NCBI GenBank assembly: GCA_020628645.1
Contig: JAHDES010000017.1
Location: 24,570-88,569 of the forward strand
DNA length: 64,000 nucleotides
From: Saprospiraceae bacterium
Lineage (GTDB): Bacteria; Bacteroidota; Bacteroidia; Chitinophagales; Saprospiraceae
Direction: 5' to 3'
This document shows positions 1 through 40,579 of this stretch, in pieces. The notes beneath the pieces are model-generated. The model ran no database searches and was not told the origin of the DNA. It was given only the letters and a program-made list of their open reading frames with translations. A program made the position numbers and the translations under genes. Positions within the stretch are counted from its first letter, which is position 1. Each line of letters starts with the position of its first letter.

Positions 1-310
1 GAAGTCACCGAAGTATTAAAGTGGGTTTCTAATTGCATTTTTTTTGCACAATCTACGTAATAAGCAGCTAAATCTTCTCTAGGAATATATTGAGGAAAAC
101 TGTCATCAAAAGGGAAATGAGGTAAGGCAGAATATTCTTTTACCGTATGCAAGTGTAAACGATCATAATGCTGATGCCAAGTTGGTGCAACGGTGGAAGC
201 TTGCTCTATGATTTCGAAATCAATATTGGCTTGACGAAATCGACTTGCGACTGCCAATCCCGCTGGGCCAGCGCCAATAATCACATTTGGAGATTGAATG
301 ATGGGCATAT
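1..310 (-). CDS. FAD/NAD(P)-binding oxidoreductase (flavin monooxygenase-like), N-terminal fragment. The gene runs off the window start.
   Basis: The reverse strand reads MPIIQSPNVIIGAGPAGLAVASRF... with a GxGxxG dinucleotide-binding motif directly after the start codon. The ORF is still open at position 1. Confidence 0.5.
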
Positions 311-454
311 TTTTTCAAATCAAATAATAGAAAAATGAGTAATCATAAGACGACTGATAGTTGGCTCACGATAGTAATTTTAAAATACGAAAAGGGAAGA
401 AGATGATTCTCCTTCCCTTTCCAAAAATAGATAAAATTTATTATCTCAGATTGT

Positions 455-1906
455 TTAAAACCATTTAATACTGAGATCAATTAATTTTTGTTTGAGTCCT
501 GTATAAGGTGGCATCATCAATTCTAAAGCACTCATCGGTGACCATTGTTTCATGACTCCTTTAGAATCAGAAAATGCTTCAAATCCAAAAAAGCCATGAC
601 TATTTCCAATTCCACTATTATTAGCTCCACCAAATGGTAAATTACCGTTAAAGAAATGCACTGCACTGTGATTAATCACCGCCGCTCCTGATCGCGTTTC
701 GTCAATGACCTTTTTCTGATTTTTTCGGCTACTACTATACATGTATAAAGCGAGTGGTTTTTCACCAGCATTAATATAATCAATGACTTCTTGAATATTT
801 TTATAGGTCAAAATCGGAAGAATAGGACCAAAGATTTCGTTGGTCATTACTGCCGAATCTTTAGAAACATTCGTCAATAAAGTTGGTGCAATATAATCTT
901 GCGTATCATCTATTTTTCCACCCATTTCTACTTTCGCTCCTTTTTCAATAGCATCTTCCAAATAATTTTTTAATCGACCAAAATGACGGGTGTTGACAAT
1001 TCGACAATAGGCATCCGAATCGGCAGCATTAGAAGAATAAAACGCTTCTGTCGTTTCCTTAAATTTCTTTACAAACTCATCCAATTTACTTTCATGAACA
1101 AAAGCATAATCAGGTGCGATACAAATCTGCCCATTGTTTGCCATTTTTGCCCAAACGATTCGTTTTATGACTCGATTGATATTTGCAGTTTCATCAATAA
1201 TGGTTGGAGATTTACCACCTAATTCTAGTGTGACAGATGCCAAATGATTGGCGGCTGCACGCATTACAATTTTACCTATAGCAGGTGCTCCCGTGAAAAA
1301 TACATGATTAAAAGGCATTTCCAATAAAGCGGTAGAAGTTTCTACAGCACCTTCTACAACAGCTACTTCATTTTTATCGAATAATTGTTCAACTACTTTT
1401 TTAATTAAAGCAGAAGAATGTGGTGTGTTTTCAGAAGGTTTCACCATCACACAATTCCCCGCAGCAATGGCTGAAATTAATGGGCAAAAGGTCAAATTAA
1501 ATGGAAAATTCCAAGGCGAAATGATTAAAGCATTTCCTTTAGGCTCATATCGAATGTAAGAGCTTGAGCCTAACAAAGCCATAGGGGTACTCACTTTTCG
1601 ATCCCGCATCCAGTTGCGCAAGTGCGATATATTATGCTTAATCTCATTGGTAATAGCATAGGTTTCCGTTAAATCAACTTCACTCGGATTTTTTCTAAAA
1701 TCTTTATACGCTGCTTCTCGAATGGCTTCTTTATTCGCTAAAATGAGTTGATGTAGCTTTTTAAGCTTTGCAATACGTTGAGATGCCGTTGTATTAGCTA
1801 CAGCCTGAAGATTAGCTTTTTGTTGATTGAAAATTTGAGTGATCGTTTCGCGTTGTTGATTAATATCTAATGCAATTGCCGTCATGATGTAGAATTTAGT
1901 AGTCAA
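455..1906 (-). CDS. NAD(P)+ aldehyde dehydrogenase (ALDH superfamily, class-3-like)
   Basis: 483 aa. The ALDH catalytic Glu motif LELGGKSP and the Cys motif NNGQICIAPDY are present, with FGGANNSGIGNSHG near the C-terminus. Confidence 0.9.
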   Translation of the reverse strand: MTTKFYIMTAIALDINQQRETITQIFNQQKANLQAVANTTASQRIAKLKKLHQLILANKEAIREAAYKDFRKNPSEVDLTETYAITNEIKHNISHLRNWMRDRKVSTPMALLGSSSYIRYEPKGNALIISPWNFPFNLTFCPLISAIAAGNCVMVKPSENTPHSSALIKKVVEQLFDKNEVAVVEGAVETSTALLEMPFNHVFFTGAPAIGKIVMRAAANHLASVTLELGGKSPTIIDETANINRVIKRIVWAKMANNGQICIAPDYAFVHESKLDEFVKKFKETTEAFYSSNAADSDAYCRIVNTRHFGRLKNYLEDAIEKGAKVEMGGKIDDTQDYIAPTLLTNVSKDSAVMTNEIFGPILPILTYKNIQEVIDYINAGEKPLALYMYSSSRKNQKKVIDETRSGAAVINHSAVHFFNGNLPFGGANNSGIGNSHGFFGFEAFSDSKGVMKQWSPMSALELMMPPYTGLKQKLIDLSIKWF

Positions 1907-27702: not shown

Positions 27703-29625
27703 ATGTTTGACGACCTACGACCTTTATCCGATTGGTTGCCGATTACAAAGAAAGAAGTGGAGGCACGAGGCTGGGAAGAATTGGATGTAATTCTGATTTC
27801 AGGGGATGCCTATGTAGATCACCCTGCCTTTGGTACGGCTGTAATTGGGCGTATATTAGAAGATGAAGGATTGAAAATAGCGATTGTACCACAACCCAAC
27901 TGGAAAGACGATCTTCGTGATTTTAAAAAACTGGGTCAACCCAAATACTTCTTTGGCATCACATCTGGATGTATGGATCCAATGGTCAATCATTATACTG
28001 CTGGAAAAAGAAAACGTTCTACGGATGCCTACACTCCTGGGGGCAAGTCAGGTTTCCGACCCGATTATGCAACGAATGTTTATTCTAAAATATTAAAACA
28101 GCTTTATCCAGAGACCCCTATTTTGATTGGTGGAATTGAGGCTTCGCTCCGTCGCGTAACGCATTATGATTATTGGGAAGATGAATTATTCCCCAATATC
28201 TTACAAATGAGTGGAGCCGATATGTTGGTGTATGGAATGGGGGAACTTCCTTTGCGGGAAATTTTACGCTTACTAAAAAAAGGAGTGCCTTTTAATTCCT
28301 TAAAAACAATTCCACAAACAGCCGTTTTACTAGATCAAGAAGAAAAAATACCTGTCAATAAAAATTGGGAAGACCTTTGGCTCAATTCTCACGAAAAATG
28401 TTTGCGAGATAAACGTTCTTTCGCTCAAAATTTTAAGCACATTGAGCAAGAATCAAACAAAGTACAAGCCAGACGTTTACTTCAAAAAACGGGCGACTAC
28501 AATTTAGTAGTCAATCCGCCATACCCACCCATGTCAGAGAACGAAATTGACCGTTCGTTTGATTTACCTTATACTCGTCTTCCGCATCCAAAATATAAAA
28601 AACGCGGCTCGATTCCTGCTTATGAAATGATTCGTTTCTCGGTCAATATGCATCGCGGTTGTTTTGGAGGCTGTAGCTTTTGTACCATTTCAGCGCATCA
28701 AGGAAAATTTATAGCCAGTCGTTCAGAAGAGTCCATCTTAAAAGAAGTGGATAAAGTAACAAAAATGCCTGACTTCAAAGGCTATATCAGCGACTTAGGT
28801 GGACCATCTGCGAATATGTATAAAATGAAAGGTAAGGTACAATCTATTTGTGATCGTTGTGTCGCACCTTCCTGTATTCACCCAGTCGTTTGTAGTAATC
28901 TAGATACGAGCCACAAACCAATGACTGAACTTTATAAAAAAGTAGATGCACATCCAGAAGTAAAAAAGGCATTTGTGGGGAGCGGTATCCGTTATGATTT
29001 ATTAGTTGATTCGTACAACAAGAAAAATGATGGTAGTCTAGATGAATACATGGAACAAGTCGTTACTTGTCATGTCAGCGGTCGCTTAAAAGTAGCACCT
29101 GAACATACCTCTGATAATACACTCAAAGTAATGCGAAAGCCATCTTTCAAGCATTTCCATGAGTTCAAAAAGAAATATGACGCCATTAATAAAAAACATG
29201 GATTGAATCAGCCATTAATTCCTTATTTTATATCGAGTCACCCTGGTTCGCAAGCAGAAGACATGGCAAATCTCGCTGCTGAAACGAAAGATATGGGCTT
29301 CAAGCTCGAGCAAGTCCAAGACTTTACGCCTACTCCCATGACGGTGGCTACTATTATTTATTATACAGGATTACATCCATATACACTTCGGCCAATTTAC
29401 ACTGCCAAATCTCCCAAAGAGAAAAAGCAACAACACATGTTCTTCTTTTGGCATAAAAAAGAAAATTATCAACAAATCAGAGACAAACTCACCAGCATTG
29501 GTCGAGAAGATCTAATTGAAAAACTCATTGGCGACAAAAAACGCCATCAAAAACAATCATTCATCAAAGACAAACGTAAATCAAGACAAAACGGCAACAA
29601 AAAGAAATTTCGTCGAAGAAAATAA
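27703..29625 (+). CDS. ygiQ: YgiQ-family (UPF0313) radical SAM protein
   Basis: 640 aa. N-terminal YgiQ-specific domain. Radical-SAM cysteine motif CFGGCSFCTISAHQG. Basic Lys/Arg-rich C-terminal tail, typical of this family. Confidence 0.88.
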   Translation: MFDDLRPLSDWLPITKKEVEARGWEELDVILISGDAYVDHPAFGTAVIGRILEDEGLKIAIVPQPNWKDDLRDFKKLGQPKYFFGITSGCMDPMVNHYTAGKRKRSTDAYTPGGKSGFRPDYATNVYSKILKQLYPETPILIGGIEASLRRVTHYDYWEDELFPNILQMSGADMLVYGMGELPLREILRLLKKGVPFNSLKTIPQTAVLLDQEEKIPVNKNWEDLWLNSHEKCLRDKRSFAQNFKHIEQESNKVQARRLLQKTGDYNLVVNPPYPPMSENEIDRSFDLPYTRLPHPKYKKRGSIPAYEMIRFSVNMHRGCFGGCSFCTISAHQGKFIASRSEESILKEVDKVTKMPDFKGYISDLGGPSANMYKMKGKVQSICDRCVAPSCIHPVVCSNLDTSHKPMTELYKKVDAHPEVKKAFVGSGIRYDLLVDSYNKKNDGSLDEYMEQVVTCHVSGRLKVAPEHTSDNTLKVMRKPSFKHFHEFKKKYDAINKKHGLNQPLIPYFISSHPGSQAEDMANLAAETKDMGFKLEQVQDFTPTPMTVATIIYYTGLHPYTLRPIYTAKSPKEKKQQHMFFFWHKKENYQQIRDKLTSIGREDLIEKLIGDKKRHQKQSFIKDKRKSRQNGNKKKFRRRK

Positions 29626-30175: not shown

Positions 30176-30820
30176 ATGTATGAGTTATTGCAAGTTGCTG
30201 TAAGTCCAGTCAATATCGTGTATACGACCCTACTCATTCTGGTACTTTTGTATTGGTGTACCGTCTTGATTGGTCTACTGGACTTTAGTTCATTTGACCT
30301 TGATCTAGACCTCGATGCTGATGTAGATGTGGACGCTGACATTGACGTGGATGCGGATGCCGATATAGATAGCGGTGGGTTCATTATCGGAGCATTACAG
30401 TTTTTCCACTTTGGTAAAATGCCCTTCATGATCATCATGAGTTTTGTAATTCTCTTCGCTTGGGTCTTGAATATCTATGCTAATTTCTATCTTGGAAAAG
30501 GGGAAATAGGCTTTGCCTTAGCGATGGCGATTCCTCTTTTATTTGTGAGTTTGATCTTAACGAAGATTATTACCATGCCTTTATTACCTGTTTTTAAAGG
30601 TATGAATGAGGGAGAAGAAAAAATTGATATGATTGGATTGACTTGTAAAGTTTTATCGAATATTACACCAAATAAATTAGGGCAAGGAGAACTAACCTAC
30701 AATCATAGCGTATTGAAAATAAATATTATAGCTGAGGAATCTACACCTCAAATAAATAGAAATACTGAAGCGATTATCATTGACCAAACAGATAAATATT
30801 ATATTGTAAAACCAATTTAA
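30176..30820 (+). CDS. YqiJ-like (DUF1449 / NfeD-like) inner-membrane protein with an acidic (Asp-X)n repeat
   Basis: About four TM helices plus a C-terminal beta-rich, OB-fold-like soluble tail. An N-proximal loop reads DLDLDLDADVDVDADIDVDADADID. It lies immediately upstream of a flotillin gene, as in yqiJ-yqiK. Confidence 0.65.
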   Translation: MYELLQVAVSPVNIVYTTLLILVLLYWCTVLIGLLDFSSFDLDLDLDADVDVDADIDVDADADIDSGGFIIGALQFFHFGKMPFMIIMSFVILFAWVLNIYANFYLGKGEIGFALAMAIPLLFVSLILTKIITMPLLPVFKGMNEGEEKIDMIGLTCKVLSNITPNKLGQGELTYNHSVLKINIIAEESTPQINRNTEAIIIDQTDKYYIVKPI

Positions 30821-30923: not shown

Positions 30924-33077
30924 ATGACAGAACCTATTTTTTTAATTGGATTAGGCCCTTTACTCATCGCAAGTGTAATAATTGCTGTTATTCTTCTTTT
31001 GGCTGTAATTTTAGCCGCTACGTGGTATAATAAAGTACCTCAAGGACAAGCCTTAGTCCGAACTGGTCGTGGTGGATCAAAAGTAGCTTATGATAAAGGA
31101 ATGTTTGTAGTTCCTATCATACACATGGTAGAAAGAATGGATTTATCTGTAAAAACGATAGAAATTACGCGTTCAAAAGAAGATGGATTGGTATGTAAAG
31201 ACAATCTTAGAGCGGATATTAAAGTAGTATTTTTTGTACGAGTCAATAAGAAAGATGATGATATTATAAACGTAGCTCAAACAATTGGTTGTGCTAGAGC
31301 ATCTGATCCTCAAACTTTACGAAATCTATTTGAGGCAAAATTTTCAGAAGCCTTAAAAACAGTAGGGAAACGTTTTGATTTTGTAGAACTATACGATTCA
31401 CGAAAAGAGTTTAAAGATGAAATTATTGCAACGATTGGTACTGATTTGAATGGATATGTCGTAGATGATGCTGCAATTGATTACTTAGAACAAACTCCTT
31501 TAGAGTTTTTAAGTGAAAATAATATCCTTGACTCAGAAGGTATCAAAAAAATTACCGAATTAACCGCTGCTCAAAAGATCAAAGCGAATTTCCACCGTAG
31601 AGAAGAAGAAAAAACGATTAAAGAACAAAATGTAGAAGCGCAAGAAGCCATCTTGGAGTATGAGCGTCAATTAGCAGAAAAGGTAGCCCGTCAAAAACGG
31701 GAGATTGCCAATATCGAAGCACGTGAAGAAGCGGAAATTGCTAAAATCAACGAAGAAGAACGACTTCGTTCAGAAATGGTTCGTATTCGTACAGAAGAAG
31801 AATTACAAATTGCGGAAGAAAATAAATTGCGTCAAGTGATTGTCGCAGCTAAAAATAAAGAACGTACAGAAGCAGTCGAAAATGAGCGTGTAGATAAAGA
31901 ACGATTACTTGAACTCACCGAAAAAGAGAAAATTGTTACACTCGCAGAAATTGAAAAAGAAAGAGCGATAGAATTAGAGCGCAAGAATATTCAGGATGTG
32001 ATCAAAGATCGGATCATGGTTGAGAAAAAAGTAGTCGAAGAAGAAGAGAAAATTAAAGATACCAAAGAATTGGCTACTGCTGAACGTGCGCGCCAAGTAG
32101 CGATTATCAAAGCCGAAGAGGAAGGTCAAGCAACGATTATTCTTCATCAAAAAACCGCAGAAGCGGAAAAATTAGCGGCAGAAATTCAAGCACAGAAAAT
32201 CAATATTGATGCAGAAGCTGAAATGAATGCAGCATCGAAAGAAGCGGAAGCTCGTAAGATTCGTGCAGAAGCAAAAGCAGCGGAAGAAGCAACCATCGGA
32301 TTATCGGAAGCACAAGTCATTGAAGCGAAAGCACAGGCGAAAGAGCGCGAAGGGACACTCGAAGCTGTTGTACTTGAAAAGAAAGCCATCGCCGAAGCTA
32401 AAGGTATCGAAGTAAAAGCAGAAGCTTTGAAAAAGCAAGGATTGGCAGAAGCTGAAATTCTTCAAGAAAAAGGAATCGCAGAAGCAAAAGCAACTTCTGA
32501 ACTAGGGTCAGCGGAAGCAAAAGTACTCGAAGAAAAATTAGTTGCCGAAGCTAAAGGCGTAGAGATGAAAGCAAATGCCATGAAGAAATTGGATGGCGTA
32601 GGCAAAGAACATGAAGAGTTCAAATTGAAATTGGAGAAAGAGAAGGAAGTCGAATTAGCGAATATTGATATTCAAGCGAAAATCGCTGAAGCACAAGCTC
32701 TCGTCTTGGCAGAGGCATTCAAGCAAGCGAATATTGACATCGTAGGCGGCGAACAAACTTTTGTCGATAACATCATGAAAGCCATCAATCGCGGTAAATC
32801 AGTCGATCGAATGCTAGACAATAGTAACCATTTGACGGATATCAAAAATGGCTTTATGAATGGCAATGGTGGAGGAGGCTTATTCTCCAAAATCAAGCAT
32901 ATCGCAAATCAGTCAGGAATTACCACCAACGATTTGAAAAATTTAACGATCTCAGCCCTTTTACTCAAATTATACAATGAAACTGCCGACGATGGACAAA
33001 AAGACGTAATTAACAGCTTAATGAAATCTGTCAAAAAATTGCGTATCGGAGAACAACTCGCAGAAGGATTATTGTAA
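30924..33077 (+). CDS. Flotillin-like SPFH/Band-7 protein (YqiK type) with a long Ala/Glu/Lys-rich coiled-coil repeat region
   Basis: N-terminal TM helix. SPFH domain (VRTGRGGSKVAYDKGMFVVPIIHMVERMDLSVKTIEI...). About 350 aa of AEAKx-type heptad-like repeats follow. Confidence 0.85.
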   Translation: MTEPIFLIGLGPLLIASVIIAVILLLAVILAATWYNKVPQGQALVRTGRGGSKVAYDKGMFVVPIIHMVERMDLSVKTIEITRSKEDGLVCKDNLRADIKVVFFVRVNKKDDDIINVAQTIGCARASDPQTLRNLFEAKFSEALKTVGKRFDFVELYDSRKEFKDEIIATIGTDLNGYVVDDAAIDYLEQTPLEFLSENNILDSEGIKKITELTAAQKIKANFHRREEEKTIKEQNVEAQEAILEYERQLAEKVARQKREIANIEAREEAEIAKINEEERLRSEMVRIRTEEELQIAEENKLRQVIVAAKNKERTEAVENERVDKERLLELTEKEKIVTLAEIEKERAIELERKNIQDVIKDRIMVEKKVVEEEEKIKDTKELATAERARQVAIIKAEEEGQATIILHQKTAEAEKLAAEIQAQKINIDAEAEMNAASKEAEARKIRAEAKAAEEATIGLSEAQVIEAKAQAKEREGTLEAVVLEKKAIAEAKGIEVKAEALKKQGLAEAEILQEKGIAEAKATSELGSAEAKVLEEKLVAEAKGVEMKANAMKKLDGVGKEHEEFKLKLEKEKEVELANIDIQAKIAEAQALVLAEAFKQANIDIVGGEQTFVDNIMKAINRGKSVDRMLDNSNHLTDIKNGFMNGNGGGGLFSKIKHIANQSGITTNDLKNLTISALLLKLYNETADDGQKDVINSLMKSVKKLRIGEQLAEGLL

Positions 33078-33273: not shown

Positions 33274-36200
33274 ATGTCTGAAATAAAACTAGAAGGCGGC
33301 ACCTATGAAATCATCCGTAATCGACTTTCCAAGCAAGCGGAGGAATTGCGCGCACGACTAGGGCAACTTAATGTAGCTCGAAAAGAAGTCTTCGGTGCAA
33401 TAGAAACACAGTTGATTGCCAATGATCGGATCAACACTCAAAACTACTGTACGGCACGAGATATTACCTCGATTGGCGACTACTGTCTTTTTGGCTATAA
33501 TGTGCAGATTGGATTGCGATCGGGCATCAAACTGGAAGACGTTTTTAGTGTTTATCAGTTTCAAAATAATAGTTTTCAAGAAGCAAAAATTTCCTTGCTG
33601 ACAGATGAAAAATTTGAGACGGATTTTCAGAATTTATATCGCTATTACAAGAATGCGTATTTTGCTCGTTTTGTAAGCATCGGATCGTATTTATACATGG
33701 TTTTTCATTTGAATAAAGATTCTGAAGATTTCAAATCATTCAAATGGTTAGTAACAGATGATGGACTCAAATATGTAGGCAATCGTTTCGACCATGAGGT
33801 GGTTTTTCCTACCCAACATGAATTTAAATGGCAACGTGCACACCGCGATTTTCACCGTTCTGGAACGCATCCACATGTCTCTATTATGGATCGAGTATTT
33901 GTGGAAACTGTAGGTGGTGATTTAACCATTAAAATAGAAGACAATACCGAAGATGGTTTAGGAATTTATCGAGAAGAAGTAGAATACAAAGAGCAAACCC
34001 TCGATGATGCAGAATATTTATATGCAGATTTGGGCAATTTGATTGTTCTAAAAATCCGACCCTATCAAGAAGAATTTCGCTATTTTGTATTTAATGAAAA
34101 AATGCAAGAGGTACAGCGTATTGATACCCTCGAAGATTCAGGTGTATTGCTCCCCGATCAGCATGGACTCATTTTTGCGAATGGCTATTACCTCCAAATG
34201 GGAGAATACAAGATATTCGATCCTGATATGCGAAATAAGCTTTTTAAGAAGCGAATCGTATCCCCGAATGGAGAAGATTATTTGTATGTTTTTTACAATA
34301 ATCAAAAAGGCACCTATGTCTTAATGCATTATAATGTCATTGAGCAAACCATTCATACGCCTATCATTTGTCATGGATTTACGCATTTTCCAAATGGAGA
34401 ATTATGCTATTTCCGTGCGGAAGATGAGCCGACTAAACATCATGTCGTACAAATTTGGCAAACACCTTTTGTCGCAGGAGATGTTGCGCCATCCAACCAA
34501 ACCGATAGTTATTTATACAAAGTAGGGAACAAAGATATTGTCAAAGCAATGGCAGAATCACAGGAGATTTTGACCTTGGTTGGAAAAGAAGATACCTATT
34601 CTGGCTTATACATTGACTTGGCTAAAAAATGTACGGATGTACTCGATTCATATTATTGGATTGATAAAGAAGGAGCTTTTCTCATCAATCAACCCATACA
34701 AGAAATAAAAGCGACGGCAACTTCTGCCATTGAAGAATATGAGAAGAAAGTTCGTATCCAAAAAAATACAGCGGCAGAAATCAAACGCGTACAAACTAAT
34801 GCCGAAGAACTTTTTGAAGCGATCCGAAAAAACACTTTTGATGCAGTTGATCTTTTTGTAGAAAAACTAGCGGCTATTCGTGTGCTACGAGGAGAAATTA
34901 TTTCCTTAAAAGAATTGCGCTATACGGATCTGCCTTTGATTGAACAATTAGAAACTTCAGCTACGGAGTACAATGACCAATTGTCCAATGATTGCGTTCG
35001 CTTTCTTTTAGATAAAGATGCTTTAGTGCCATACATTAAGAAAATTGAGGAGCAAGCAAAGCAATTAGAAAGTATTGAAACAGCGAAACAAGGACAAGAA
35101 GTTGAAGAAACTATCGACCAAACAGGAAAAGAACTAGAGTTGTTGATTGACATTGTAAGTAATCTCAAAATTGATGATGCAACTCAAACCACACGCATTA
35201 TTGATAATATTTCTGCCATGTACGCCCAACTGAATCAAGTTAAAGCAGCAGTCAAGAAGAAGCAGAAAGAATTGATGGGTACGGAAGCCATTGCGGAATT
35301 CAATGCACAACTCAAATTACTCGATCAAGGGATTATCAACTATCTTGATCTGGCTGATAGTACACAAAAATGCGATGAGTACCTTACTAAACTAATGGTA
35401 CAACTCGAAGAGTTAGAAGGAAAATTTGCCGAATTTGATGAGTTTATTTTGACGATTACAGAGAAGCGCGAGGAAATTTATGCGGCTTTTGAAAGTCGTA
35501 AAAACACCTTGATTGAATCTCGAAATAATCGTACGTCTGCCCTTCAATCTGCGGCAGATCGTATTTTAAATGGGATTCAAAACAGAGCTAAATCCTTTAA
35601 AGAAGTCAACGAAATTAATGGCTTTTTTGCATCTGATTTGATGATTGATAAAGTGCGTGATATTGTCCAGCAATTAATTGATCTGGAGGATAGCAATAAA
35701 GCGGGGATGGTTCAATCGCGTTTAAAAAGCTTAAAAGAAGAAGCCGTTCGCCAATTGCGAGATCGCCAAGATTTATTGGTGGATGGACAAAATATTATTC
35801 AATTTGGTCGCCATAAATTTGCAGTGAATGTTCAGCCGCTTGATTTAACCGTTGTTAATGAAGGTGGACAAATGAAATTCCATTTGACGGGAACAGATTT
35901 TTATGAGCCGATTACCAATACCGATTTTTTATCTACAAAATCAGTTTGGAATCAACGTTTACCTTCAGAGAATGAAAGTGTCTATCGTTCGGAATTTTTA
36001 GCCTATCAACTGTTTAAAAGTAATCCTCAATCACAGTTATTACAAGCGAATGGACAATTGTTAACACTCGTTCAAAAAGAAGCGACTCTTCGTTATCAAG
36101 AGGGGTATACAAAAGGCATTCACGATGAAGATGCGGCAGATATTCTTCGCGCATTAGTGCAATTATCGGATAAAATTGATCTCTTACGTTTCACACCTGA

Positions 36201-38136
36201 TGTACGTGCCTGCGCGAATATTTGGTGGCACCGTTTTCTATCGGAAGAAGATAAAAATTTGTTTAGCAATCAACTGAAAAGTGCAGGAGTGATCTTGCAA
36301 GTTTTCCCAGAAACACATGAGTTTGATTATTTAATTGAAGATTTAGAACTAGTTGTTAATAGCTTCTTAGAAGAGCAAACCATTTTCTCACAAGAAGAGG
36401 TGAATCGTAGAAAAATTGCCGAATACATTTTTCAAGAATTATCAAAAGGTGATCAGTTTATCATCTCGAAGGAAGCCGCTGAACTCTATACCGAATTTAA
36501 AAACTACCTCAAAAAACGAAAATCACAAGGGGCATTTGATACCTCCACTTTTGAATTAAGAGATAATCCTGCTGAGCAGTTCCAATTAATGCGTAAGTGG
36601 GTACATGCCTTCATTGAGCAATTGAAAGTCGATCATTATTTGTCTTTTATCAATGAAGCGGCGAGTTTGCTGTTTTTGGATAATTTCAATAAGAAACAAG
36701 TCATTCAAACGAAGACTTCTGTGGAGGTGGGTAAACTACATGGTACGCATAAAAGTTTTGAGGAAATCTATCATTTAGATTATACCGCTTTTATGAAGAA
36801 AATGGAGGCCTACGAAACCGAAACGCTTCCTGCTTATCAGCAATTTGTACAACAAAAGAAAGATTTAGCGATCCAATTCAGAAAAGAATTACGCTTGGAT
36901 GAATTTAAGCCGCGTGTACTCAGTTCGTTTGTACGAAATAAATTGATTGACCAAGTTTATTTACCAATTATTGGAGATAATTTAGCCAAACAAATGGGAA
37001 CGGCTGGTGAAAATACCCGTACGGATTTGATGGGCATGTTGCTCTTGATTTCGCCTCCAGGTTATGGTAAAACAACCTTGATGGAATACATTGCCAATCA
37101 ATTGGGCTTGATCTTTATGAAAATCAATGGGCCAGCCATCGGTCATCAAGTGACTTCGCTCGATCCTGCGGATGCGCCCAATATGGCAGCCCGTCAGGAA
37201 GTACAAAAATTGAATCTGTCCTTGGAGATGGGCAATAATGTGATGTTGTATGTCGATGATATTCAGCATTGTCACCCTGAGTTTTTACAGAAATTTATCT
37301 CCCTTTGTGATGCCCAACGTAAGATTGAAGGGGTGTATAAAGGCGAAAGTAAAACATACGATTTAAAAGGTAAACGCTTTTGTGTCGTCATGGCTGGAAA
37401 TCCATACACCGAAAGTGGCGATAAATTCCAGATACCTGATATGTTGGCGAATCGTGCTGATATTTATAATCTAGGAGATATTATTGGTGACACCGAAACG
37501 GTTTTCAAATTGAGTTATATTGAAAATGCGATGACTTCCAATCCTGTTTTACAAAAATTGTCGAATAAGAGTTGGAAAGATGTCTATACGGTGCTGAAAA
37601 TGGCAGAAACAGGCAGTCGTGAAGGACTAGAATTTGAAGCGAATCATAGTCCAGAAGAACTCAATGAATATGTAAGTATTCTCGAAAAAATGTTGGTGGT
37701 ACGAGATGTTGTACTCAAAGTGAATCAAGAATATATTCGCTCTGCGGCGATGGCAGAAGATTATCGTACTGAGCCTGCATTCAAGTTACAAGGCTCGTAT
37801 CGAAATATGAATAAGTTAGCGGAAAAACTCGTTCCCATCATGAACGAACAGGAATTGGATACCTTGATCCTTTCCCATTATGAAGGTGAATCACAAACCC
37901 TAACGAATGGAGCAGAAGCCAATTTTCTAAAACTAAAAGAACTTTTAGACGGTCAAAGCGAAGAAGAACAAAACCGTTGGACAGCTATCAAAAAGACCTT
38001 CAATAAAAACAAAATCTTCCGTAATACGGATGAAAATAATCCGATGAGTCAAGTGCTTGCCCAATTAGCTGCTTTTACGGATGGAATTGATGGTATTAAA
38101 GATGTATTGGAGCAGGCAGTGAAAGGGAAAGGATAG
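33274..38136 (+). CDS. Giant (1620-aa) cytoplasmic protein with a C-terminal AAA+ ATPase module (MoxR/AAA_5-like). The N-terminal ~1200 aa have no recognisable domain.
   Basis: Walker A LLISPPGYGKTTLMEY (aa 1263-1268; nt 37060-37077). Walker B MLYVDDIQH (nt ~37243-37263). Sensor-1-like VVMAGNPYTE. No signal peptide and no TM segment. The region around aa 430-820 is E/K/L/Q-rich and looks like coiled-coil. Confidence 0.7.
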   Translation: MSEIKLEGGTYEIIRNRLSKQAEELRARLGQLNVARKEVFGAIETQLIANDRINTQNYCTARDITSIGDYCLFGYNVQIGLRSGIKLEDVFSVYQFQNNSFQEAKISLLTDEKFETDFQNLYRYYKNAYFARFVSIGSYLYMVFHLNKDSEDFKSFKWLVTDDGLKYVGNRFDHEVVFPTQHEFKWQRAHRDFHRSGTHPHVSIMDRVFVETVGGDLTIKIEDNTEDGLGIYREEVEYKEQTLDDAEYLYADLGNLIVLKIRPYQEEFRYFVFNEKMQEVQRIDTLEDSGVLLPDQHGLIFANGYYLQMGEYKIFDPDMRNKLFKKRIVSPNGEDYLYVFYNNQKGTYVLMHYNVIEQTIHTPIICHGFTHFPNGELCYFRAEDEPTKHHVVQIWQTPFVAGDVAPSNQTDSYLYKVGNKDIVKAMAESQEILTLVGKEDTYSGLYIDLAKKCTDVLDSYYWIDKEGAFLINQPIQEIKATATSAIEEYEKKVRIQKNTAAEIKRVQTNAEELFEAIRKNTFDAVDLFVEKLAAIRVLRGEIISLKELRYTDLPLIEQLETSATEYNDQLSNDCVRFLLDKDALVPYIKKIEEQAKQLESIETAKQGQEVEETIDQTGKELELLIDIVSNLKIDDATQTTRIIDNISAMYAQLNQVKAAVKKKQKELMGTEAIAEFNAQLKLLDQGIINYLDLADSTQKCDEYLTKLMVQLEELEGKFAEFDEFILTITEKREEIYAAFESRKNTLIESRNNRTSALQSAADRILNGIQNRAKSFKEVNEINGFFASDLMIDKVRDIVQQLIDLEDSNKAGMVQSRLKSLKEEAVRQLRDRQDLLVDGQNIIQFGRHKFAVNVQPLDLTVVNEGGQMKFHLTGTDFYEPITNTDFLSTKSVWNQRLPSENESVYRSEFLAYQLFKSNPQSQLLQANGQLLTLVQKEATLRYQEGYTKGIHDEDAADILRALVQLSDKIDLLRFTPDVRACANIWWHRFLSEEDKNLFSNQLKSAGVILQVFPETHEFDYLIEDLELVVNSFLEEQTIFSQEEVNRRKIAEYIFQELSKGDQFIISKEAAELYTEFKNYLKKRKSQGAFDTSTFELRDNPAEQFQLMRKWVHAFIEQLKVDHYLSFINEAASLLFLDNFNKKQVIQTKTSVEVGKLHGTHKSFEEIYHLDYTAFMKKMEAYETETLPAYQQFVQQKKDLAIQFRKELRLDEFKPRVLSSFVRNKLIDQVYLPIIGDNLAKQMGTAGENTRTDLMGMLLLISPPGYGKTTLMEYIANQLGLIFMKINGPAIGHQVTSLDPADAPNMAARQEVQKLNLSLEMGNNVMLYVDDIQHCHPEFLQKFISLCDAQRKIEGVYKGESKTYDLKGKRFCVVMAGNPYTESGDKFQIPDMLANRADIYNLGDIIGDTETVFKLSYIENAMTSNPVLQKLSNKSWKDVYTVLKMAETGSREGLEFEANHSPEELNEYVSILEKMLVVRDVVLKVNQEYIRSAAMAEDYRTEPAFKLQGSYRNMNKLAEKLVPIMNEQELDTLILSHYEGESQTLTNGAEANFLKLKELLDGQSEEEQNRWTAIKKTFNKNKIFRNTDENNPMSQVLAQLAAFTDGIDGIKDVLEQAVKGKG

Positions 38137-38852: not shown

Positions 38853-39554
38853 TTACTTCCTTGTCTTCTCCCAAAAACTCTCCTGATACGTCTTCGAAAT
38901 AGGTAAATATCGCTCTTTAATCACGACTCGATTACGCTCGATAAAGTCAATTTTAGATAAAGCCACAATATAGGAACGATGGATACGGACGAACTGCTCG
39001 GAGAGTAAAACTTCTTCAAAAAAGCGCATATTTTCTAAGGTTAGGGTTTTTCCAGCAGGAGTATGGACTGCCACATAATCGCCTAAGGCTTCTAGATAAA
39101 GGATGTCATCAAAATTCAAACGAATAGTTTTGTAGCCACTTTTGATGAATATGTAGGAAGGAGGATTAGATATTATGTTTTCTTCTTTTGAAATTCGTTT
39201 TTCAACGTGTTTTTTAATTTTTTGCACGCACAATAAAAAACGTTCAAAACTGATCGGTTTTAATAAATAATCAATGGCATCCATTTCATAACTATCTACG
39301 GCATATTGATCGTAAGCAGTAGTAAATACCACTTCATACTTATTTTGGGTAAGTTTAAGGAGCTGTATACCCGTCAATTCTGGCATTTGAATGTCTAAAA
39401 ACAGTAAATCGACTTCCTGTTTATTTAAAAAATGGAAGGCTTCTATAGGATTAGTAAAGGAATCGATCAACTCCAAATCGGGGGACTGTCGGACATAATC
39501 TGCCAATAATTGAATGGCTAAGGGTTCATCATCTATAATAAGACATCGAATCAT
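38853..39554 (-). CDS. LytTR-family two-component response regulator
   Basis: Receiver domain (LIIDDEPLA...FLDIQMPELTG) plus a C-terminal LytTR DNA-binding domain. Confidence 0.85.
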   Translation of the reverse strand: MIRCLIIDDEPLAIQLLADYVRQSPDLELIDSFTNPIEAFHFLNKQEVDLLFLDIQMPELTGIQLLKLTQNKYEVVFTTAYDQYAVDSYEMDAIDYLLKPISFERFLLCVQKIKKHVEKRISKEENIISNPPSYIFIKSGYKTIRLNFDDILYLEALGDYVAVHTPAGKTLTLENMRFFEEVLLSEQFVRIHRSYIVALSKIDFIERNRVVIKERYLPISKTYQESFWEKTRK

Positions 39555-40579
39555 CGTTGATCGTTTAAAGGAATTGATAAATGTACACGAAAGAAAGCCG
39601 CTTTTTCTTCGATGCGTAATTTATGTTGATCGCCATACATCAAGTTCAGTCTTTTTTTGATATTATTCAAACCGATTCCTCCTACTTTATCTTTTTGTTT
39701 GGCGGCAACAGCATTGCTTATTTCAATTGTTAATTCATTTTCTTTGGCTTGAATAGTCATCTCGATAAGCTGTTTTATGTCTCCATGTTTAAAGGCGTTT
39801 TCAACAAAAGGAAATAAAATAAAAGGTGGAATTTGAACATCCGCGGTAGCTCCTTTTTGTTGTAAATGAAATTGAATCGGATAATCAAAACGCATTCGTT
39901 CCAACTCCACAAATCGTTGGATGGTCACGATTTCTTCTTGAAGTGGAATATATTCCTTTTTGCCATACAAACTAGATCGTAAAATCGCGCTTAATTTTTC
40001 AATAGCGGGAAGTGCATGCTCCGATTTTTGGTATACCAAACTATAGATATTATTCAAGGTGTTAAACAAAAAATGCGGATTAAATTGAGAACGTAAAAAA
40101 GATAATTGTGTTTGTTGGTTTTCAATAATCAAGGCATGACGCTGCTGTTCTTTAAAATTAGAATATTGAATAAAAAAGAAAATAAATCCCACACTAAAAT
40201 GGACGAACGCAAAATAGATGTTGTTTAAAACGTATTGAATTCCCACAATATCATCTCTAAAATTATCAAAGCCAAATAGCTGTAAAAAGATGATTTCTTC
40301 AAGAGCATATCGAATGCAGCAAACAAGAATTAATACGATAATAATGCCTATTACCAATTCCTTTTTTCGTTTGGGATAAAAGTGAAATGAAACTAAATAG
40401 GCGCCTAAGCTAAATAGAAAAAAACAGATAAGCGAGGACAAATTAAGCATCCCTGAAGAAAAAATTCCCCAATCCAATAAAGCATTCCAACTTTGATCTA
40501 AAGCGACATTCCTTAAATCATAGAATACCAAATACACGAGTGTATGCCAAAGGAATAATTGTCCAATTTTCTGTTGCAT
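39551..40579 (-). CDS. LytS/YehU-type sensor histidine kinase
   Basis: Multi-TM N-terminus; His-kinase region (LRSQFNPHFLFNTLNNI) and an HATPase_c-like C-terminus. Its end overlaps the regulator gene by 4 bp (ATGA). Confidence 0.8.
   Translation of the reverse strand: MQQKIGQLFLWHTLVYLVFYDLRNVALDQSWNALLDWGIFSSGMLNLSSLICFFLFSLGAYLVSFHFYPKRKKELVIGIIIVLILVCCIRYALEEIIFLQLFGFDNFRDDIVGIQYVLNNIYFAFVHFSVGFIFFFIQYSNFKEQQRHALIIENQQTQLSFLRSQFNPHFLFNTLNNIYSLVYQKSEHALPAIEKLSAILRSSLYGKKEYIPLQEEIVTIQRFVELERMRFDYPIQFHLQQKGATADVQIPPFILFPFVENAFKHGDIKQLIEMTIQAKENELTIEISNAVAAKQKDKVGGIGLNNIKKRLNLMYGDQHKLRIEEKAAFFRVHLSIPLNDQR

Follow-up and report, generated by a model that had tools for sequence, protein, structure and literature searches.

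A widespread, experimentally unstudied AAA+ ATPase family encoded with flotillin: a candidate remodeler of bacterial flotillin and PspA assemblies

SPFH proteins build membrane-attached domes or cages, and one of these, the HflK/C cage, encloses the AAA+ protease FtsH (partial texts of PMC12624060, PMC13000311, and PMC13220708). PspA, in turn, is an ESCRT-III-superfamily protein, and a Vps4-like ATPase appears to be lacking in bacteria (2025 review, PMC7619361). The described system closest to the one treated here was reported by Ravi et al. (mSystems 2024, PMC11237479; preprint 2020), who worked by comparative genomics alone and found a CesT/Tir-PspA dyad combined with 3 further genes, including one for a YqiJ/YuaF protein with 3 transmembrane segments. 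Abbreviated operons (Band-7/flotillin, YqiJ/YuaF, and sometimes an AAA+ gene), in which no PspA gene is adjacent, were reported to be more widespread. An entry in their Table S3, “Betapropeller+Coiled-coil+AAA-ATPase,” concerns Dokdonia donghaensis (beside ANH61663.1), and the function proposed for the system was ATP-dependent, chaperone-like membrane dynamics. The subject of the present analysis is a locus of this kind in a Saprospiraceae bacterium. It lies in a 64,000-nucleotide stretch of contig JAHDES010000017.1 (assembly GCA_020628645.1, positions 24,570 to 88,569 of the forward strand), hereafter the window, and encodes a 1620-residue AAA+ protein, the product of the third gene in a triad whose first 2 genes specify a YqiJ-like and a flotillin-like protein (Table 1).

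The domain order of the window protein, its 2 upstream partners, and the order of the genes are the same as in the operon of PMC11237479. What differs is the extent of the operon: the extended form has the CesT-PspA dyad and a divergent helix-turn-helix (HTH) regulator, whereas the window is without them, and since the CesT/Tir-PspA dyad was not found in the 64 kb, the window is taken to hold the abbreviated form. The window protein is equated with the published family by architecture and context, without an alignment to the Dokdonia protein. The published work gives neither a Pfam family nor an AAA+ clade for its ATPase; extended and abbreviated operon forms were both recovered here, independently of it. 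Since both family and operon have been recorded before, the locus is a further member and not a discovery. With the HflK/C-FtsH assembly the locus shares a concept, an SPFH scaffold and an AAA+ ATPase at the inner membrane (partial text of PMC13220708), but FtsH is a membrane-anchored protease of the classical AAA clade, while the window ATPase is soluble, MoxR-like, and devoid of a protease domain. The protein is best described as the soluble ATPase subunit of a three-gene membrane module, together with a YqiJ/NfeD-like protein of 3 transmembrane segments and a YqiK-like flotillin, and some lineages extend the module upstream with a CesT/YjfI-type chaperone and an ESCRT-III-like PspA. As to what it does, the account we favor, with moderate confidence, is that it is a cytoplasmic, ATP-driven remodeler of flotillin and PspA membrane assemblies.

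The first line of evidence is a near-obligate gene linkage. Synteny was counted in 64 related loci for which 3.5 kb or more of upstream sequence was available; they come from Bacteroidota, Planctomycetota, Verrucomicrobiota, Desulfobacterota, Kiritimatiellota, and Clostridia. In 61 of them the gene directly preceding the AAA+ gene, on the same strand, is flotillin-like, and in 53 a YqiJ-like gene precedes the flotillin gene in turn. Beyond these two, no neighbor is kept across phyla in the 64 loci, and the conserved neighbor clusters comprise flotillin, YqiJ-like, PspA, HTH, and CesT proteins only. The same order is met in Gammaproteobacteria, on the pQBR103 megaplasmid and in Vibrio campbellii, where a flotillin gene is upstream. 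About 22 Bacteroidota loci have the extended arrangement, which begins with an XRE-type HTH regulator in divergent orientation and continues with CesT_Tir_1, PspA, YqiJ, flotillin, and finally the AAA+ gene. On pQBR103 (Pseudomonas fluorescens SBW25, NC_009444.1, 84.4-97.6 kb; our locus L083) the order runs YjfI, PspA, a rhomboid protease, DUF2491, DUF350, DUF1190, glutathionylspermidine synthase, a hypothetical protein, an SPFH protein, and a “DNA repair ATPase” of 1748 residues; here a polyamine-type PspA operon is joined to the flotillin-AAA+ genes. A preliminary description of this DNA, made from the letters and their translations, had proposed a test for interaction between the ATPase and the adjacent flotillin, and the cross-phylum synteny strongly supports a functional tie between the two.

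The pair is not always immediately contiguous. In L006, L008, L019, L034, L055, L058, and other loci, 1-2.4 kb of unrelated cargo sits between the flotillin and AAA+ genes, with the flanking gene order intact; this cargo includes lipoproteins, small transmembrane proteins, an IS200-like transposase-type open reading frame (ORF), and an AbiEii-like ORF, and in L010 a DUF559 ORF is found just upstream of the AAA+ gene. Such inserted genes were considered as parts of the system and rejected, being heterogeneous, sporadic, and locus-specific. Also rejected, as Rosetta-stone fusions, were 2 proteins, P0137 (NfeD1b_N plus DUF3686) and P0234 (flotillin C-terminus plus DUF3686), whose linkers are R/P/A/G-rich or junk-like; both are probably read-through artefacts of gene calling and are evidence of adjacency only. 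From P0137 it can be seen that an NfeD1b-type gene can directly precede the ATPase gene. In Aureispira anguillae (L001, 4523-5197) an extra short Band_7 protein of 224 residues is encoded between the YqiJ-like and long flotillin genes, giving that locus 2 SPFH paralogues.

The ATPase itself belongs to a large family with a common layout. The ORF opens with an ATG, and this start is sound because homologue alignments begin at residues 2-6. Searched against 5.8 billion proteins, the sequence has 5327 homologues at E<=1e-10. Among the best 120 of these, nearly all are 1608-1685 residues long (one, labelled partial, has 1453), nearly all carry the same Pfam trio, query coverage is 99-100% for most, and the names, where given, are “DNA repair ATPase” or “AAA family ATPase.” The DUF3686 domain searched alone yielded 730 clusters at 50% identity, with full-length members of 1600-1930 residues. 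In species-representative genomes, at least 588 stretches were confirmed, from the same groups as listed above for the syntenic loci, and in 80 genomes the tblastn matches span residues ~5-1615. Further hosts in a plasmid and chromid collection are Proteus, Vibrio, Photobacterium, Halomonas, Pseudomonas (pQBR103), Streptomyces, Nonomuraea, and Deinococcus, the matches being mostly on chromids, chromosome-sized records, or megaplasmids. The family spans at least 8 phyla. The nearest relatives, at 67-76% identity, are in metagenome-assembled genomes of Saprospiraceae (the window has about 35% GC). The protein is a member of a widespread, catalogued, experimentally unstudied family of soluble ATPases. 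The preliminary description had called its architecture an orphan one that could not be placed, which is contradicted by the 5327 homologues, their shared layout of about 1600 residues, and the 730 clusters: this is a catalogued Pfam family with an operon described in 2024 (PMC11237479), though not a well-characterized family with an established function, its function being experimentally unstudied.

A second line of evidence is that the ATPase is apparently catalytically intact, as judged from its sequence. In an alignment of the window protein with 61 family members, which are 31-52% identical to it, the AAA+ core is the best-conserved region of the whole protein, and residues 961-1200 are the least conserved part (majority-residue fraction 0.28-0.37). 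The Walker A motif, the Walker B motif (in which D1328-D1329 replaces the usual D-E), and the sensor-1 motif MAGNP, which includes N1376, are invariant or nearly so, as are R1394 and R1510, placed where an arginine finger and sensor 2 would be expected. R1510, invariant across the 62 sequences, stands at the start of a helix (residues 1509-1517) in the AlphaFold2 (AF2) model. Because they are conserved at 31-52% identity, the 3 ATPase motifs are genuine and no chance matches, and since K1266, D1328/D1329, N1376, R1394, and R1510 are conserved, the ATPase looks active. Much of this had been read correctly beforehand: the 1620-residue ORF; a Walker A given as 37060-37077, a range that corresponds to the GYGKTT part of the motif; a Walker B given as about 37243-37263; a sensor-1-like MAGNP; and the lack of a transmembrane segment, noted then for the part upstream of the motifs and true of the whole 1620-residue protein, for which the highest Kyte-Doolittle mean over 19 residues is 1.18.

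The AAA+ clade is a matter of resemblance. PF00004 passes at the P-loop (28.9 bits against a cut-off of 21.2); the full PF00004 match that includes the second region of homology, as in the classical AAA clade (Cdc48/p97, Vps4, and FtsH), is absent. AAA_5 scores 21.4 bits with the full protein and 23.6 bits with the C-terminal 620 residues alone, against a cut-off of 22, and a precomputed AAA_5 match exists for about half of the close homologues, whereas AAA_3 reaches 13.4 bits against a cut-off of 27. The solved structures closest to the AAA+ module are the MoxR-type remodelers CbbQ and NorQ, which outscore dynein and midasin as structural matches, and the AF2 model predicts a hairpin that follows the Walker B helix and precedes the sensor-1 strand, a placement shared with the MoxR group. 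In the predicted loop between strand 2 and helix 2 (residues 1286-1303), no clear hairpin of the helix-2 insert kind is seen. The protein further departs from the MoxR family in its Walker B, which is D-D where that family has D-E, in having no evident helix-2 insert hairpin in the model, and in its size: MoxR proteins have 250-500 residues, whereas the window protein has about 1600, with a 1250-residue N-terminal extension. It is reasonable to say, with the preliminary description, that the AAA+ module resembles MoxR/AAA_5, short of established membership, because AAA_5 is at the threshold, AAA_3 fails, no VWA gene is present, and the protein is several-fold the MoxR size. Searched against PDB chains, the single sequence and the 62-sequence profile alike hit p97, NVL, Rix7, and RuvB in the Walker A and linker region (E>=1e-4) and, apart from the syntaxin-1A match given below, nothing else; these hits were rejected as a means of classification. 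No NCBIfam family model covers the 1620-residue protein.

Of the protein as a whole, the AF2 models cover residues 1-480 (pLDDT, the model's local confidence score, 90; predicted TM-score 0.88) and 830-1620 (pLDDT 83.5). The match to PF12458 (DUF3686) has an E-value of 1.3e-181 and 604.5 bits against a cut-off of 25, and takes in profile positions 1-448 of 448; with DUF3686 and DUF7902 both matched, the N-terminus of about 1200 residues is not unannotatable, as had been thought. The beta-rich N-terminal domain that had been proposed is there in the model, and the Foldseek matches listed for this model are all propeller proteins, with low TM-scores. Beta-propellers are typical platforms for protein binding. 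The middle region is rich in E (11%), K (9%), and L (11%), which fits the coiled-coil-like character first ascribed to it, and it is helical where modeled, although only its edge, residues 413-480, falls within a model; the label “coiled-coil” is that of PMC11237479. For the DUF7902 region, the family profile gave a non-significant match to the three-helix Habc bundle of syntaxin-1A (E 0.017-0.03), probably helical-bundle noise. The pre-AAA segment has no Pfam match. A complete AAA+ module, lid and C-terminal helices included, occupies residues ~1246-1620 of the model.

Table 1. Features of the flotillin-linked AAA+ locus; nucleotide positions are those of the window.
Feature	Nucleotides	Residues	Strand	Description
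YqiJ/YuaF (NfeD-like) inner-membrane protein	30176..30820		+	214 residues, first gene of triad; three hydrophobic segments, beta-rich C-terminal tail
Flotillin-family SPFH protein, YqiK-like	30924..33077		+	717 residues; transmembrane segment, Band-7/SPFH, E/A/K-rich coiled coil, conserved C-terminal region
DUF3686/DUF7902/AAA+ protein	33274..38136		+	1620 residues, soluble, third gene of triad; NCBI name for relatives “DNA repair ATPase”
Long N-terminal helix		9-40	+	AF2 model of residues 1-480
DUF3686 domain	33343..34656	24-461	+	N-terminal and C-terminal helices around propeller-like core
Beta-rich, divergent propeller-like core	33409..34461	46-396	+	AF2 model of residues 1-480
Helices packed beside N-terminal helix		413-480	+	AF2 model of residues 1-480
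E/K/L-rich helical, coiled-coil-like middle	34510..35763	413-830	+	Composition; helices modeled at residues 413-480
DUF7902 (PF25472)	35017..35271	582-666	+	Pfam E 1e-27
Pre-AAA segment	35794..36996		+	AF2 C-terminal model; small beta, helical, hairpin plus helix, and linker parts
Small beta domain		841-879	+	AF2 model of residues 830-1620
Poorly conserved all-helical domain		905-1135	+	AF2 model and 62-sequence alignment
Beta-hairpin plus long helix		1149-1206	+	AF2 model of residues 830-1620
Pre-AAA linker helix		1223-1241	+	AF2 model of residues 830-1620
AAA+ alpha/beta core	37009..37470	1246-1399	+	Walker A and B, sensor-1, candidate arginine finger
Walker A	37051..37077	S1260-T1268	+	SPPGYGKTT
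Walker B	37246..37269	L1325-H1332	+	LYVDDIQH
Predicted pre-sensor-1 beta-hairpin	37321..37362	1350-1363	+	AF2 model
Sensor-1	37390..37404		+	MAGNP
Candidate arginine finger	37453..37455	R1394	+	
AAA+ lid and C-terminal helical bundle	37471..38133	1400-1620	+	Carries conserved FKLQGSYRNMNK motif
Candidate sensor-2 arginine	37801..37803	R1510	+	

The 2 upstream genes are homologues of YqiJ and YqiK in the E. coli order, as in the E. coli YqiJ-YqiK and B. subtilis YuaF-FloT pairs; unlike the window, the yqiJK pair of E. coli K-12 has no AAA+ gene downstream. In the flotillin-like protein, Band_7 is detected with an E-value of 2e-15 when residues 1-250 are searched alone, the coiled coil masking it in the full-length search, and over 443 residues the protein is 31% identical to E. 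coli YqiK (BLASTP, E 1e-51). A single transmembrane segment lies at residues ~1-40, and the Pfam “Flot” C-terminal model has no match in this protein. The window flotillin exceeds YqiK by 164 residues, and the two cease to align in BLASTP at residue ~445. Its C-terminal region (residues 560-717, nucleotides 32601-33074) has no Pfam match, shows 41-61% identity between AAA-linked loci of different phyla, and is detectable in Vibrio campbellii. Because it is conserved in AAA-linked loci and lies outside the YqiK alignment, this stretch of about 160 residues is a candidate docking site.

For the YqiJ-like protein, the Pfam YqiJ_N score is 17.8 bits, below the cut-off of 23, but the family is clear from its relatives: across 41 syntenic orthologues YqiJ_N matches 16 (best E 3.6e-8) and NfeD 2, and the family profile aligns to E. 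coli YqiJ with an hhalign probability of 96.8% (E 2e-10, 186 columns). Hydropathy indicates 3 transmembrane-like segments. After the first of these comes a strictly alternating acidic repeat, DLDLDLDADVDVDADIDVDADADID (residues 41-65, window 30296-30370). Its D-x-D-x pattern is retained in the consensus of the 41 orthologues, whereas E. coli YqiJ shows only a short version; the repeat could form a loop that binds cations or senses charge. As for transcription of the triad, a promoter scan over 29.5-38.9 kb gave 30 promoter-like sites against a shuffle expectation of 30.2, using a sigma-70 consensus unsuited to Bacteroidota, and found no + strand terminator between the 3 genes, a result that is uninformative. 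Directly upstream of the triad (27703-29625, + strand) is a gene for a YgiQ-type radical SAM protein (Radical_SAM_N, Radical_SAM, and DUF3362), which is not conserved there in other loci. Genes for a response regulator of the LytTR type and for a His_kinase-type sensor lie just 3′ of the AAA+ gene (38853-40579, − strand). Loci L025, L027, L035, and L045 likewise encode a LytTR regulator no more than 8 kb downstream, L045 together with the kinase, and this could reflect a loose regulatory link or coincidence.

In molecular terms, remodeling by this protein might proceed as follows. Both partners are membrane proteins and the AAA+ protein has no transmembrane segment. Family membership, domain anatomy, motif conservation, and gene linkage come from the observations above, and from them we infer an oligomeric state, a binding partner, and a remodeling activity. 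The MoxR-like AAA+ modules would assemble into a cytoplasmic ring, probably a hexamer, from which the helical spacer of about 400 residues would hold the N-terminal propeller away. The propeller may bind the cytoplasm-facing part of the flotillin assembly, PspA polymers, or both, with the conserved flotillin C-terminal region as its candidate docking site. ATP hydrolysis would then remodel, disassemble, or recycle these scaffolds, or their clients, during envelope stress. The preliminary description had thought of mechanochemical remodelers or defense effectors, and the remodeler remains the best functional guess.

Several observations weigh against this account. Gene linkage speaks for a shared process and is silent on who acts on whom. 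In 3 of the 64 loci (L023, L031, and L032) there is neither a flotillin nor a YqiJ gene within 8 kb; the neighbors there are unrelated (Uma2, TonB_C/TPR, DUF2147, and DUF4258), and no alternative conserved partner takes their place. PspA is absent from the window itself, where tblastn with the PspA, CesT, and HTH proteins of L011 and L015 returned only noise (E>=1.7) across the 64 kb. The flotillin C-terminal region, searched on its own, was not detected in pQBR103. Walker B has D-D in place of the usual D-E. MoxR-type ATPases normally operate with a VWA-domain partner, and no gene for one is among the conserved neighbor clusters. Finally, nothing was found in the literature under DUF3686 or PF12458, nor any experimental study of a family member, including under “DNA repair ATPase” with flotillin and PspA.

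A more specific form of the remodeling account, which we put forward only tentatively, is that the family is an ATP-driven machine that disassembles or recycles flotillin (SPFH) domes, PspA polymers, or both, and so might be the functional counterpart of Vps4. The parallel is that in Vps4/ESCRT-III an AAA+ ATPase is genetically tied to a polymer of the ESCRT-III superfamily, as is the case with PspA in the extended operons. The ring of such a counterpart would, just as tentatively, be MoxR-like and not homologous to Vps4, its coiled-coil arms ending in propeller “hands.”

The alternatives differ in what the ATP would be spent on. One is client-directed quality control, in which the flotillin dome would be a corral and the AAA+ protein would pull out or unfold damaged membrane proteins kept in or beside it, leaving the scaffold itself alone. 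There is precedent for it in HflK/C-FtsH, an SPFH cage with an AAA+ machine (partial text of PMC13220708), and in S. aureus, whose flotillin microdomains confine and stabilize unfolded proteins (partial text of PMC11222466). The synteny with flotillin serves this account equally, and the propeller could bind clients. Against these stand the lack of a protease domain in the protein and of a protease gene among its conserved partners, the lack of a membrane anchor on the AAA+ protein, and the sequence between strand 2 and helix 2, GPAIGHQVTSLDP, in which the aromatic pore-loop motif is not visible. We regard quality control as unlikely. Less probable again is that the protein is a motor-like or tether-like organizer, for which dynein and midasin are the analogies: its coiled coil would serve as a stalk or ruler by which flotillin microdomains are positioned or moved and not taken apart. 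The helical spacer of about 400 residues between the binding and motor domains would suit such a role, as would the structural matches to dynein and midasin; yet there is one AAA+ module per chain and not 6, no cytoskeletal partner is found among the conserved neighbors, and the simple hexameric remodelers CbbQ and NorQ are the better structural matches.

Large AAA+ and STAND-type proteins with repeat sensors are common in defense systems, and the defense effector of the preliminary description would make the window protein an anti-phage or conflict effector, a large NTPase whose sensor propeller triggers membrane-directed abortive infection. Occasional Uma2, DUF559, and AbiEii-like neighbors and the copy on the pQBR103 megaplasmid are in keeping with that. 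However, the best matches in PADLOC-DB 2.0 are noise (mads_8, E 0.0077, and TRIP13, E 0.0096, at 13-14 bits in the P-loop region), the 2 partner proteins have no PADLOC match, and no relative was found among IMG/VR viral contigs. Moreover, the three-gene core is stable across phyla and flanked by ordinary housekeeping genes rather than a defense island, with no defense genes among the conserved neighbors; the inserted genes are sporadic and different at each locus; and no effector domain (nuclease, TIR, protease, or pore-former) was found. A role in defense is therefore very improbable, and a mobile-element hypothesis was rejected as well. Scarcely credible is the DNA repair ATPase of the databases, which has in its favor names only (the Pfam text for DUF3686, “ATPase involved in DNA repair,” and the NCBI product name) and a weak RuvB match (22.6 bits) in the Walker A region, whereas the RuvB equivalog models reach 20-23 bits against cut-offs of 282-299 over only ~45 residues around the P-loop, the SMC, SbcC, RecN, and Rad50 families are unmatched, no nucleic-acid-binding domain was detected, and the conserved neighbors are membrane and envelope-stress proteins with no repair gene among them. 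The name probably comes from an old annotation transfer via coiled-coil similarity; neither sequence nor context supports it, and it probably misleads.

Much work has gone into bacterial flotillins and PspA as membrane organizers and repair factors, but no driver of their assembly and turnover is known. An AAA+ protein coupled to a flotillin gene in hundreds of species is a testable candidate for the missing driver. The family has culturable hosts, including Proteus mirabilis, Vibrio campbellii, and Flavobacterium, as well as Pseudomonas fluorescens with its plasmid pQBR103; this last, a well-studied plasmid with both a PspA operon and the flotillin-AAA+ genes, is a convenient experimental system. 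If the reading as a disassembly machine is true, it would explain how such scaffolds are regulated in bacteria, which appear to have no Vps4 homologue. In any case, the family is a good experimental target for learning how flotillin and PspA assemblies are regulated.

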